Assembly: GCF_058153355.1 (NCBI RefSeq)
Contig: NZ_CM177019.1
DNA length: 64,000 nucleotides
Reading direction: 5' to 3' (one strand)
Below, one piece after another: positions 28,649 to 35,592 of the stretch. The notes beneath the pieces were generated by a model that was given only the letters and a program-made list of their open reading frames with translations, was not told the origin of the DNA and did not search any database. A program made the position numbers and the translations under genes. Position 1 is the stretch's first letter; the number at the start of each line of letters is the position of its first letter.

Positions 28649-29479
28649 TTACGCGGAGCGAGACGCTGTCGCCCCTGCGCGCGGCGGCAGAGCAAATGCC
28701 ACCAGCGCCGGGATGAGATAAATAAACCAGACGGCGACTTCGCTGACGCTCGGCGCTTCCTGATAACCAAAGATACCTTCCATCAGCGTACCGAACAGCG
28801 AGTGAGTTGAGAGCACCGCGCTCATATCGAAGACGATTTCCTGAAAGTGGTTCCACAGCCCGGCTTCATGAAACGCGCGAATAGCACCTGCCGCCAGCCC
28901 TGCGGCGACGAAGAGAATAAAGAGGCTGGTCCATTTAAAAAACGCGCCAAGATTGAGGCGAATACCGCCCCAGTAGAGCAGGAAGCCGAGCACCACGGCT
29001 GTAGCAAGACCGAGCATTGCACCCAGCGGAGGCCAGATCCCGACATCTTGTTGAAACGCCGCCAGCAGGAAAAAGACCGACTCCAGCCCTTCCCTTGCAA
29101 CGGCAAAAAAGACCATCATCACCAGCGCCCAGCCATGATGATTCCCACGCTGCAATGCGCTATCGACTGCCTGTTCCAGTTGCACTTTGACGTTGCGCGA
29201 CACTTTACGCATCCAGAAAACCATCCAGGTGAGGATCACCACGGCAATCACCGCCACGATACCTTCGAACAATTCCTGCTCTTTTTGCGGAAATTCGCCG
29301 GTGGTTTCATTAATGAAGATACCCAGCCCCAGGCACAACGCAGCGGCTAGCAACACGCCAATCCACATGACACCAATCCATCGACCTCGCTGGGTACGCT
29401 TAAGATAGCTGGCAATCAGGCTGACAATCAGCGCGGCTTCAAGTCCTTCGCGCAACATAATGAGAAACGGAACAAACAT
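28649..29479 (-). CDS. efeU: ferrous iron permease EfeU, apparently intact (276 aa from Met MFVPFLIMLREG)
   Basis: single uninterrupted ORF 28649..29488; two REGLE-type motifs (MLREGLEAAL, AREGLESVFF) typical of FTR1 permeases. Confidence 0.85.
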   Translation of the reverse strand: MFVPFLIMLREGLEAALIVSLIASYLKRTQRGRWIGVMWIGVLLAAALCLGLGIFINETTGEFPQKEQELFEGIVAVIAVVILTWMVFWMRKVSRNVKVQLEQAVDSALQRGNHHGWALVMMVFFAVAREGLESVFFLLAAFQQDVGIWPPLGAMLGLATAVVLGFLLYWGGIRLNLGAFFKWTSLFILFVAAGLAAGAIRAFHEAGLWNHFQEIVFDMSAVLSTHSLFGTLMEGIFGYQEAPSVSEVAVWFIYLIPALVAFALPPRAGATASRSA

Positions 29480-29698
29480 GCCACCCACCCTTAAACGTTT
29501 TTCTGAGTCAATCTATGCAAAGAAAAGTAAATCGCAGTGATAGCGATTATCATTACGGTGAAGAAAAACACAAGCGGAATGTAGTGATAATGATGAGGAA
29601 ATGTAAATTTTTTTTGAGAGAAAATGCAGAGGGCAATCACTGATTGCCCTCTGCCTGCTTCTGATTATGACGTGGGATTTTCGGTAAAACGCCTTCCC

Positions 29699-31207
<1,509 letters not shown>

Positions 31208-31395
31208 CTAAAGTCTCCAAAAAATTATTATCGGCAATGTCGAAACTTGCCGTTATATCTGCCACCGGAACGGGGTAACAGAGTTTATGTTTTCCCAGGG
31301 CGACCGTATCCTGCCGGAAGCGCTGGTTATTCACAATCGATTTAACACACCATTTACATTAAATTTTAGTGCTCAGCGATACTATTTTTCATCAG

Positions 31396-31603
31396 GTTGC
31401 ACTCCCTCACATTTTTTGCGGTTGCACCTTTCAAAAATGTTAACTGCCGCAGAGAAAAAGTCTGAGTTATTTTTTTAATCCCTGTCATATCGATTTCTTT
31501 TATTAACATTTCATTCATTTTTAAGCTTGCTACGCAGGTCACATTTAACATGGTTGCACAAAGTTGCAACATCATGGATATTTCACGATAACGTTAAGTT
31601 GCA
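31396..31603. promoter_or_regulatory. putP-putA divergent control region with five GTTGCA motifs (candidate PutA operators)
   Basis: GTTGCA at 31396, 31431, 31553, 31563, 31598; matches the PutA operator consensus as I recall it. Confidence 0.7.
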
Positions 31604-31629
31604 CCTTTCAGAACAACAGGAGTAATGGC

Positions 31630-34600
31630 ATGGGAACCACCACCATGGGGGTTAAGCTGGACGACGCGACGCGTGAACGCATTAAGTCTGCCGCGACACG
31701 TATCGATCGCACACCGCACTGGTTAATTAAGCAGGCGATTTTTTCTTATCTTGAACAACTGGAAAACAGCGATACTCTGCCGGAGCTACCTGCGCTGCTT
31801 TCTGGCGCGGCCAATGAGAGCGATGAAGTACCGACTCCGGCAGAGGAACCACACCAGCCATTCCTCGACTTTGCCGAGCAAATTTTGCCACAGTCGGTTT
31901 CCCGTGCGGCTATCACCGCTGCCTATCGCCGCCCGGAAACCGAAGCGGTTTCGATGCTGCTGGAACAAGCTCGCCTGCCGCAGCCAGTTGCTGAACAGGC
32001 GCACAAACTGGCGTATCAACTGGCCGATAAACTGCGTAATCAAAAAAACGCCAGTGGTCGCGCAGGTATGGTTCAGGGGTTATTGCAGGAGTTTTCGCTG
32101 TCATCGCAGGAAGGCGTGGCGCTGATGTGTCTGGCGGAAGCACTATTGCGTATTCCCGACAAAGCCACCCGTGATGCACTAATACGCGACAAAATCAGCA
32201 ACGGTAACTGGCAGTCACACATTGGTCGTAGCCCGTCGCTGTTTGTTAATGCTGCCACCTGGGGGCTTCTCTTTACCGGCAAACTGGTTTCCACCCATAA
32301 CGAAGCCAGCCTCTCCCGCTCGCTGAACCGCATTATCGGTAAGAGTGGCGAACCGCTGATCCGCAAAGGTGTGGATATGGCGATGCGTCTGATGGGCGAG
32401 CAGTTCGTCACTGGTGAAACCATCGCGGAAGCGTTAGCCAATGCCCGCAAGCTGGAAGAGAAAGGTTTCCGTTACTCCTACGATATGCTGGGCGAAGCCG
32501 CACTGACCGCAGCGGACGCGCAGGCATATATGGTTTCCTATCAGCAGGCGATTCACGCTATTGGTAAAGCCTCCAGTGGTCGTGGCATCTATGAAGGTCC
32601 AGGCATTTCAATCAAGCTGTCGGCGCTGCATCCGCGCTACAGCCGCGCCCAGTACGATCGGGTAATGGAAGAGCTTTACCCGCGTCTGAAATCATTAACC
32701 TTGCTGGCGCGTCAGTACGATATTGGTATTAACATTGATGCCGAAGAGGCCGATCGTCTGGAGATCTCCCTCGATCTGTTGGAAAAGCTTTGTTTCGAGC
32801 CTGAACTGGCAGGTTGGAACGGCATCGGTTTTGTTATTCAGGCTTATCAAAAACGCTGCCCGCTGGTGATCGATTACCTGATTGATCTCGCCACCCGCAG
32901 CCGTCGTCGTCTGATGATTCGCCTGGTGAAAGGCGCGTACTGGGATAGTGAAATCAAACGTGCGCAAATGGACGGCCTTGAAGGTTATCCGGTTTATACC
33001 CGCAAGGTGTATACCGATGTTTCTTATCTCGCTTGTGCGAAAAAGCTGCTGGCGGTGCCAAATCTCATTTACCCGCAGTTTGCAACGCACAACGCCCACA
33101 CGCTGGCGGCGATTTATCAACTGGCAGGTCAAAACTACTATCCGGGTCAGTACGAGTTCCAGTGCCTGCATGGTATGGGCGAGCCACTGTATGAGCAGGT
33201 CACCGGGAAAGTTGCCGACGGCAAACTTAACCGTCCGTGTCGTATTTATGCTCCGGTCGGTACCCATGAAACACTGCTGGCATATCTGGTGCGTCGCCTG
33301 CTGGAAAACGGTGCTAACACCTCGTTTGTTAACCGTATTGCTGATACCTCTTTGCCACTGGATGAACTGGTTGCCGATCCAGTCACTGCAGTAGAAAAAC
33401 TGGCGCAACAGGAAGGGCAAACTGGATTACCCCATCCGAAAATTCCCCTGCCGCGCGATCTTTACGGTCACGGGCGCGACAACTCGGCAGGGCTGGATCT
33501 CGCCAATGAACACCGACTGGCCTCGCTCTCCTCAGCCCTGCTCAACAGTGCACTGCAAAAATGGCAGGCCTTGCCAATGCTGGAACAACCGGTCGCGGCT
33601 GGTGAAATGTCACCCGTTATCAACCCGGCGGAACCGAAAGATATTGTGGGCTATGTGCGTGAAGCCACGCCACGTGAAGTAGAACAGGCGCTGGAAAGTG
33701 CAGTTAATAACGCGCCAATCTGGTTTGCCACGCCTCCGGCCGAACGCGCGGCGATTTTGCATCGCGCTGCCGTACTGATGGAAAGCCAGATGCAGCAACT
33801 GATTGGTATTCTGGTGCGTGAGGCCGGAAAAACCTTCAGTAACGCCATTGCCGAAGTGCGTGAAGCCGTCGATTTTCTCCACTACTACGCGGGACAGGTG
33901 CGGGATGATTTCGCTAACGAAACCCACCGTCCATTAGGGCCAGTGGTATGTATCAGCCCGTGGAACTTCCCGCTGGCGATTTTCACCGGGCAAATCGCTG
34001 CCGCACTGGCGGCAGGTAACAGCGTACTGGCAAAACCGGCAGAACAAACGCCGCTGATTGCCGCACAAGGGATTGCCATTTTGCTGGAAGCGGGTGTACC
34101 GCCAGGCGTGGTGCAGTTGTTGCCCGGTCAGGGTGAAACCGTAGGCGCGCAACTGACGGGTGATGATCGCGTGCGCGGGGTGATGTTTACCGGTTCAACC
34201 GAAGTCGCTACGTTACTGCAACGCAATATCGCCAGCCGCCTGGACGCTCAGGGCCGCCCAATTCCACTCATTGCGGAAACCGGCGGCATGAACGCGATGA
34301 TTGTCGATTCCTCCGCCCTAACCGAACAGGTCGTCGTGGATGTACTGGCCTCGGCCTTCGACAGTGCAGGTCAGCGTTGTTCGGCGCTGCGCGTGCTGTG
34401 CCTGCAAGATGAGATTGCCGACCACACGTTGAAAATGCTGCGCGGCGCAATGGCCGAATGCCGGATGGGTAATCCGGGTCGCCTGACCACCGATATCGGT
34501 CCGGTGATTGATAGCGAAGCGAAAGCCAATATCGAGCGTCATATTCAGACCATGCGTAGCAAAGGCCGTCCGGTGTTCCAGGCGGTGCGGGAAAACAGCG

Positions 34601-35592
34601 AAGATGCCCGTGAATGGCAAAGCGGCACCTTTGTCGCCCCGACGCTGATCGAACTGGATGACTTTGCCGAATTGCAAAAAGAGGTCTTTGGTCCGGTGCT
34701 GCATGTGGTGCGTTACAACCGTAACCAGCTCCCAGAGCTGATCGAGCATATTAACGCTTCCGGTTATGGTCTGACGCTTGGCGTTCATACACGTATTGAT
34801 GAAACCATTGCCCAGGTCACTGGCTCGGCCCATGTTGGTAACCTGTATGTTAACCGTAATATGGTGGGCGCAGTGGTGGGTGTGCAGCCGTTCGGCGGCG
34901 AAGGGTTGTCCGGTACCGGGCCGAAAGCAGGCGGTCCGCTCTATCTCTACCGTCTGCTGGCGAATCGCCCGGAAAGTGCGCTGGCAGTGACGCTCGCGCG
35001 TCAGGATGCAGAGTATCCGGTCGATGCGCAGTTGAAAGCCGCATTGACTCAGCCGCTAAATGCACTGCGGGAATGGGCAGCAAATCGTCCAGAATTGCAG
35101 GCGTTATGTACGCAATATGGCGAGCTGGCGCAGGCAGGAACACAACGATTGCTGCCAGGGCCGACGGGTGAACGCAACACCTGGACGCTGCTGCCGCGTG
35201 AGCGCGTATTGTGTATCGCGGATGATGAACAGGATGCGCTGACTCAGCTCGCCGCCGTGCTGGCGGTGGGCAGCCAGGTACTGTGGCCGGATGACACGCT
35301 GCATCGTCAGTTAGTGAAGGCATTGCCATCGGCAGTCAGCGAACGTATTCAACTGGCGAAAGCGGAAAATATAACCGCTCAACCATTTGATGCGGTGATC
35401 TTCCACGGTGATTCGGATCAGCTTCGCGCATTGTGTGAAGCCGTTGCCGCGCGGGATGGCGCAATTGTTTCGGTGCAGGGTTTTGCCCGTGGCGAAAGCA
35501 ATATCCTTCTGGAACGGCTGTATATCGAGCGTTCGCTGAGTGTGAATACCGCTGCCGCTGGCGGTAACGCCAGTTTAATGACGATCGGTTAA
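31630..35592 (+). CDS. putA: bifunctional proline dehydrogenase / P5C dehydrogenase and repressor PutA (about 1320 aa)
   Basis: ORF 31564..35592; start MGTTTMGVKLDD with N-terminal ribbon-helix-helix region; ALDH motifs later. Confidence 0.9.
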   Translation: MGTTTMGVKLDDATRERIKSAATRIDRTPHWLIKQAIFSYLEQLENSDTLPELPALLSGAANESDEVPTPAEEPHQPFLDFAEQILPQSVSRAAITAAYRRPETEAVSMLLEQARLPQPVAEQAHKLAYQLADKLRNQKNASGRAGMVQGLLQEFSLSSQEGVALMCLAEALLRIPDKATRDALIRDKISNGNWQSHIGRSPSLFVNAATWGLLFTGKLVSTHNEASLSRSLNRIIGKSGEPLIRKGVDMAMRLMGEQFVTGETIAEALANARKLEEKGFRYSYDMLGEAALTAADAQAYMVSYQQAIHAIGKASSGRGIYEGPGISIKLSALHPRYSRAQYDRVMEELYPRLKSLTLLARQYDIGINIDAEEADRLEISLDLLEKLCFEPELAGWNGIGFVIQAYQKRCPLVIDYLIDLATRSRRRLMIRLVKGAYWDSEIKRAQMDGLEGYPVYTRKVYTDVSYLACAKKLLAVPNLIYPQFATHNAHTLAAIYQLAGQNYYPGQYEFQCLHGMGEPLYEQVTGKVADGKLNRPCRIYAPVGTHETLLAYLVRRLLENGANTSFVNRIADTSLPLDELVADPVTAVEKLAQQEGQTGLPHPKIPLPRDLYGHGRDNSAGLDLANEHRLASLSSALLNSALQKWQALPMLEQPVAAGEMSPVINPAEPKDIVGYVREATPREVEQALESAVNNAPIWFATPPAERAAILHRAAVLMESQMQQLIGILVREAGKTFSNAIAEVREAVDFLHYYAGQVRDDFANETHRPLGPVVCISPWNFPLAIFTGQIAAALAAGNSVLAKPAEQTPLIAAQGIAILLEAGVPPGVVQLLPGQGETVGAQLTGDDRVRGVMFTGSTEVATLLQRNIASRLDAQGRPIPLIAETGGMNAMIVDSSALTEQVVVDVLASAFDSAGQRCSALRVLCLQDEIADHTLKMLRGAMAECRMGNPGRLTTDIGPVIDSEAKANIERHIQTMRSKGRPVFQAVRENSEDAREWQSGTFVAPTLIELDDFAELQKEVFGPVLHVVRYNRNQLPELIEHINASGYGLTLGVHTRIDETIAQVTGSAHVGNLYVNRNMVGAVVGVQPFGGEGLSGTGPKAGGPLYLYRLLANRPESALAVTLARQDAEYPVDAQLKAALTQPLNALREWAANRPELQALCTQYGELAQAGTQRLLPGPTGERNTWTLLPRERVLCIADDEQDALTQLAAVLAVGSQVLWPDDTLHRQLVKALPSAVSERIQLAKAENITAQPFDAVIFHGDSDQLRALCEAVAARDGAIVSVQGFARGESNILLERLYIERSLSVNTAAAGGNASLMTIG

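Follow-up and report, generated by a model that had tools for sequence, protein, structure and literature searches.

The divergent spacer between putP and putA, the put control region, is among the best-characterised autoregulatory regions in Escherichia coli. Five operators, each with a GTTGCA hexamer, were reportedly mapped there in the 2008 work of Zhou et al., three of them said to be critical for the repression of putA and two for that of putP; the same work is said to have described a co-crystal of PutA52 with operator 2 in which 9 bp are contacted. The PutA consensus has been tabulated from the 2rbf co-crystal as cGGTTGCACc (PMC4655474), and genomic SELEX in K-12 found PutA bound at the putA/putP spacer only, in a single peak (PMC8249747). 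PutA binds put control DNA with a Kd of 45 nM, and a proline/FAD switch moves the protein from DNA to the membrane; the switch changes DNA affinity only 2-fold, and the effect of proline is exerted mainly through membrane binding (PMC5293562). The same model of switching between DNA and membrane has been summarised elsewhere (PMC5879082).

Other ribbon-helix-helix (RHH) systems provide points of comparison. Arc, MetJ, CopG and Mnt resemble PutA in that the antiparallel beta-sheet of a dimer reads the major groove, and the operators called O3 and O4 below are one helical turn apart, which is also the arrangement of tandem RHH dimers; chains of the CopG family were found as weak sequence matches to the PutA RHH. 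PutA differs from the classical repressors in being an enzyme, of 1320 aa, whose dimer has a single RHH, in recognising single asymmetric hexamers scattered along some 200 bp instead of one compact, symmetric site for a tetramer, and in being released by relocation to the membrane rather than by loss of a corepressor. A further point of comparison is the trifunctional PutA of Pseudomonas, whose RHH domain (PDB 2jxg, 2jxh, 2jxi) is homologous to the one encoded here (E = 2e-20). Pseudomonas also has divergent putP-putA genes, several GTTGCA copies and, some 80 bp ahead of putA, a tandem pair, which reads GGTTGCACCCGGTTGCACC there and GGTTGCACAAAGTTGCAAC here, but it carries additional reverse-strand sites around -265 to -285 and has no counterpart of O5 at -32.

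The window, by which we mean the whole 64,000-nucleotide stretch that was analysed, is E. coli DNA. Its putP gene, for a sodium/proline symporter of 502 aa (29699-31207, minus strand), matches the NCBIfam equivalog NF011948 over its full length with 1133 bits, and putA, for the 1320-aa trifunctional repressor / proline dehydrogenase / P5C dehydrogenase (31630-35592, plus strand, with an ATG start codon at 31630), matches NF008772 over residues 1-1320 with 2656 bits. The pair is flanked by efeUOB-phoH and, at the opposite end, by rutR-rutA. The RHH domain of PutA (residues 1-52, encoded at 31630-31785 on the plus strand) matches PDB 2gpe, 2rbf and 2ay0 with E about 5e-31, and residues 1-66, the RHH included, are identical to K-12, such that a cognate trifunctional PutA with an intact DNA-binding domain is encoded alongside the operators described below. 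The spacer between the two genes is divergent, as a preliminary description made from the sequence alone had stated, and measures 422 bp (31208-31629) rather than the 420 bp given there.

The closest described relative of this spacer is the put control region of K-12, which is from the same species and has the same 422-bp length, flanking genes, hexamer offsets and RHH. The spacer in the window is 100% identical to that of E. coli EC42405, and was found at 95-100% identity in 5412 of 5426 complete E. coli genomes. It differs from K-12 by five SNPs, at 31294, 31380, 31405, 31537 and 31610, all of them outside the hexamers; those closest to a hexamer follow O1 by 4 nt and O5 by 7 nt, and no functional change would be expected from any of the five. 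A further observation concerns efeU, which is intact in the window (28649-29488, minus strand, a 279-aa ORF with a match to the EfeU equivalog). In K-12 this gene is a frameshifted pseudogene, and the lineage of the window is therefore a non-K-12 one.

A hexamer scan of the window found GTTGCA on the plus strand of the spacer at 31396, 31421, 31553, 31563 and 31598, which bears out the five exact copies of the preliminary description. All five share one orientation, toward putA, and their start-to-start spacings are 25, 132, 10 and 35 bp. A sixth copy is present on the minus strand at 31565-31570 because the fourth site is a palindrome, GTTGCAAC. Two of the copies had been described as adjacent or overlapping near 31553-31570; the adjacency holds for a plus-strand pair 10 bp apart, and the overlap is that of the minus-strand copy with the second member of the pair. 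The offsets of the five plus-strand copies, 189, 214, 346, 356 and 391 of 422 bp, are the same in E. coli K-12 XL1-Blue, and we take the sites to be the mapped K-12 operators O1-O5 of the 2008 work.

These operators can be set out one by one. O1 (31396-31401, plus strand) reads aGGTTGCACt, and O2 (31421-31426, plus strand) reads cGGTTGCACCTTTCA; O2 is presumably the operator in the 2rbf co-crystal. O3 (31553-31558, plus strand), which reads tGGTTGCACa, is followed by the palindromic O4 (31563-31570), which has a plus-strand copy at 31563-31568 and the minus-strand copy mentioned above, and O5 (31598-31603, plus strand) reads aAGTTGCACCTTTCA. The extended contexts are GGTTGCAC for O1-O3, AGTTGCAA for O4 and AGTTGCAC for O5, and as a set O1-O5 agree with the contact sequence cGGTTGCACc as well as with the core hexamer. 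O2 and O5 have in common a 16-nt repeat.

The five same-orientation hexamers in the spacer of divergent putP and putA are almost certainly the operators O1-O5 of the E. coli put control region, through which putA and putP are repressed. The match to a PutA operator consensus, which the preliminary description had pointed out, is upheld by the putP and putA equivalogs, the K-12 offsets, the 2rbf consensus and the top-ranked hexamer of the 74-species comparison reported below. Its further statement, that this is expected biology with the autoregulatory architecture intact, agrees with the identity to K-12 of RHH residues 1-66 and of all five hexamers. The PutA operator array was already known, and the E. 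coli put control region carried by the window is intact and unremarkable. As a discovery this has small weight; its use is as a positive control, in which a motif noticed by eye coincides with mapped operators and is independently recovered by comparison of species.

The operators nearest to putA coincide with other regulatory elements. The supplement of Park et al. (2013; PMC3798270) gives a predicted ArcA site at K-12 1078163-1078193, placed at -45 to -15 of putA. The sequence of that site is the reverse complement of window 31542-31572, and the putA start used by Park et al. is therefore 31587. On the minus strand this predicted three-repeat ArcA-P site, ATGTTGCAACTTTGTGCAACCATGTTAAATG, lies directly over O3 and O4. 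Upstream of the start, GATATT at 31577-31582 is a candidate -10 element, in which GATA.T is invariant in 17 Enterobacteriaceae genera, and the TTGCAC of O3 (31554-31559), 17 bp upstream of GATATT, is likely the putA -35 hexamer, both assignments being made from position and conservation. A consensus promoter scan returned no putA promoter candidates, and one weak minus-strand candidate, ATGAAA/TAAAAT at 31392-31363, which did not rise above shuffles.

These coincidences raise the question whether O3 and O4 are primarily ArcA-P direct repeats, the putA -35 element and promoter spacer, or both, with a conservation that reflects anaerobic repression or promoter function and not PutA. ArcA-P direct-repeat sites are recognised by two to four 10-bp repeats similar to TGTTAA, spaced by 11 bp, together with ChIP occupancy. 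Consistent with such a reading are the location of the predicted three-repeat site, the ChIP-chip and ChIP-seq peaks at putA together with a 30.8-fold derepression of this gene when arcA is deleted (Park et al., 2013; PMC3798270), and the 17-bp interval between TTGCAC and the conserved GATATT. ArcA sites would also explain the conserved TTAACA/TGTTAA blocks at 31342, 31438, 31503 and 31545. However, the middle ArcA repeat over O3/O4 scores -0.1 bits, O1, O2 and O5 are not covered by the ArcA prediction, and the footprinting of Park et al. (2013) was on putP, not putA. Moreover, Pseudomonas retains the tandem GTTGCA with CCCG as the spacer between the copies and without the adjacent TTAACA of Enterobacterales. 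ArcA function at these sites would overlap PutA binding and not be an alternative to it, and as the primary explanation of O3/O4 it is very unlikely, although ArcA and promoter functions may be part of the cause of the extreme conservation of this block. We keep to the reading of O3 and O4 as PutA operators that also lie within a promoter.

Two observations on RNA at the start of putA can be added here. A strong RNA 3' end reported at K-12 1078854 (Adams et al., 2021; PMC7815308) corresponds to window position about 31657 on the plus strand, 28 nt inside putA, and adjoins a CCATGG...CCATGG inverted repeat around the putA start codon. An Rfam scan of 31100-31750 gave noise only, with E above 6, and the match to RF02780, the "PutA 5' UTR thermometer", reached 14.9 bits at 31596-31659, far under its 51-bit threshold.

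Comparison across species recovered the same motif independently. A genome scan with PutA residues 1-500 yielded 80 loci in Enterobacterales and Pseudomonas, or 81 with the E. coli locus, and in 75 of the 81 putP and putA are divergent, with spacers of 195-603 bp. The sample for motif comparison was made up of 74 species other than E. coli, all with divergent putP-putA. When the hexamers of these spacers were ranked without regard to any motif, GTTGCA came first, with 354 copies against 20.2 expected, a 17-fold excess; its density is 10.9 per kb in spacers and 0.62 per kb in flanking coding DNA, and all 74 species have at least two copies per spacer. The hexamers ranked next overlap GTTGCA, widening the consensus over the 74 species to (G/A)GTTGCACC, and in the site profile position -1 is G while +1 and +2 are both C. 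Two copies stand in tandem, as GTTGCA-N4-GTTGCA, in 70 of the 74 species, mostly about 55-130 bp upstream of putA. Among 17 aligned Enterobacteriaceae genera the O3/O4 block GGTTGCACAAAGTTGCAAC is invariant, O1 is kept in 16 and O2 in 14. On the protein side, the RHH core residues G7, V8, K9, L10, D11 and R15 and the T28-F38 helix are conserved in the same 74 species.

The site profile also bears on CytR, whose site model in RegulonDB consists of repeats of the octamer GTTGCATT and has the GTTGCA core in common with the hexamers here (PMC3013702). If the hexamers were CytR half-sites, the spacer would be a CytR/CRP promoter, with octamers in pairs and flanking CRP sites. Across the 74 species, however, the hexamer is followed by C at 262 of 354 sites and by T at no more than 7, and the spacings of 25, 132 and 35 bp misfit the preferred 2-bp gap between octamers, only O3 and O4 being close together. 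Neither GTTGCATT nor its complement AATGCAAC occurs in the spacer of the window; with zero copies of GTTGCATT there, identity with the CytR octamer was rejected, and CytR as an explanation of the hexamers is highly improbable. It is scarcely credible that the hexamers came together by chance in an AT-rich spacer and share no function. Counted over the whole window GTTGCA is not enriched (60 copies, with 55 expected), but the spacer has six copies where the rate in the remainder of the window predicts 0.36 (Poisson P = 2e-6). In 20,000 dinucleotide shuffles of the spacer six copies never arose and five arose twice, and no other 422-bp stretch of the window exceeds four. In addition, four of the five positions are conserved among Enterobacteriaceae genera, the tandem pair extends to Pseudomonas, and the 74 species show the enrichment given above.

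The distribution of O5 is narrower than that of the other operators. Among the sampled species an exact GTTGCA at this position was found in E. coli only; E. albertii has GCTATA there, and 15 other Enterobacteriaceae genera have unrelated sequence. Within the species, 4258 E. coli genomes share the 54 bp surrounding O5 without a difference, and 1162 others match this segment at 95-99% identity. O5 thus appears to be peculiar to E. coli and to have arisen once the lineage had parted from E. albertii; the pattern points to a gain in one lineage, or else to a loss in E. albertii. Since none of the sampled species other than E. coli has O5, the system can in general do without it. The restriction of O5 to E. 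coli had escaped the preliminary description, as had the sixth, minus-strand copy of the hexamer and the overlaps of the operators with ymdG, the putA promoter and the predicted ArcA site.

Read together with the literature on put control DNA, from which PutA binding and the redox/membrane switch would carry over to this region, the sites and the intact cognate domain observed here are consistent with the following scheme. Each operator would be read by the RHH domain formed from the two N-termini of a PutA dimer, with the beta-sheet of the domain inserted into the major groove at (G/A)GTTGCAC. At low proline, PutA in its oxidised form would be in the cytoplasm and would occupy the operators. 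O3 (-34 to -29 of putA) would then cover the -35 element, O4 (-24 to -19) the promoter spacer and O5 (+12 to +17) the early transcribed region, and on geometric grounds occupancy of O3-O5 would block RNA polymerase at putA. O1 and O2, which are 130-160 bp away on the putP side, would repress putP. Proline would reduce the FAD of PutA, and the protein would gain affinity for the membrane and leave the DNA, with the result that both putA and putP would be expressed.

For the putP side, a footprint of ArcA-P at promoter P1 covers -15 to +9, within a site at K-12 1078376-1078408, or window 31327-31359 (Park et al., 2013; PMC3798270). If the footprint is assumed to begin at the left edge of this site, the P1 start would therefore lie near 31344. 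Relative to that putative start O1 would be at about -57 to -52 and O2 at -82 to -77; the pair would span about -52 to -82 and lie beyond the core promoter on its upstream side. We can only speculate on how they would act on putP: they might compete with a weak CRP-like site that overlaps O1 (centre 31403.5), act on a more distal promoter in the putP direction, or cooperate with O3-O5. The CRP candidates, centred at 31403.5 (3 mismatches) and 31535.5 (2 mismatches), were not clearly above a background of 1.4 per 422 bp and are left as speculation.

Both O1 and O2 lie within ymdG (31366-31488, minus strand), a small ORF located from the published sequence and coordinates, whose 40-aa protein has been validated by epitope tagging (VanOrsdel et al., 2018; PMC6001520). 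The 69-aa "hypothetical protein" annotated by RefSeq at 31366-31575 is an over-extended version of ymdG, and spans O1-O4. The ymdG frame is broken in E. albertii and Citrobacter and is not kept outside Escherichia, and the apparent similarity of the peptide is therefore merely that of the conserved operators. Translation of ymdG implies, in turn, a promoter in the putP direction upstream of 31488.

Rearranged forms of the region were also observed among E. coli genomes. Strain 2013C-3492 carries a 177-bp deletion with ends in a 13-nt repeat shared by O2 and O5, GTTGCACCTTTCA (compared with window 31421-31610), which is a natural O2/O5 recombination deletion; one hybrid operator is left in a spacer of 245 bp, and O3, O4 and the inferred putA promoter are gone. 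In strain EC22, putP and the half of the spacer that holds O1 and O2 have given way to IS1 and a truncated pgaB, and only the putA-proximal 152 bp of the spacer, with O3-O5, are kept. For studies of proline catabolism and of regulation by leader RNA, modest leads are offered by O5, the operators inside ymdG, the ArcA overlap, the O2/O5 deletion and a hairpin in the putP leader.

This hairpin lies in the 5' leader of putP at 31259-31281 on the minus strand, has an 8-bp stem and reads CUGUUACC-CCGUUCC-GGUGGCAG in the mRNA sense. It was found in 27 of the 75 loci sampled, in Escherichia, Citrobacter, Enterobacter, Serratia, Yersinia, Pantoea and Pectobacterium, and its core CGUUCCG (loop CGUUCC) is invariant. 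In an alignment of 23 sequences 86% of cells are paired, against 33-42% with a slid partner, and compensatory changes were found in 7 of the 8 pairs; the covariation score is 0.70 against about 0.15-0.18, a value reached by none of 500 shuffles. RNAalifold yields the same helix, which is also part of the minimum-free-energy fold of the E. coli leader, and pairing is somewhat better in the mRNA sense (159 against 148 of 184 cells). No Rfam family matched the hairpin in the scan of 31100-31750.

Published transcript data bear on the same leader. Term-seq placed a Rho-independent 3' end at K-12 1079260, and ymdG-putP was flagged as a candidate for a uORF-linked regulator (Adams et al., 2021; PMC7815308). 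That 3' end corresponds to window position 31252, 7 nt after the hairpin stem. We suggest, tentatively, that the hairpin might be an undescribed cis-regulatory RNA, for example an attenuator or a site at which an sRNA or a protein docks, which would control putP without the involvement of PutA. UUCCGG, in the mRNA sense, is likewise present in a second conserved block (31304-31320).
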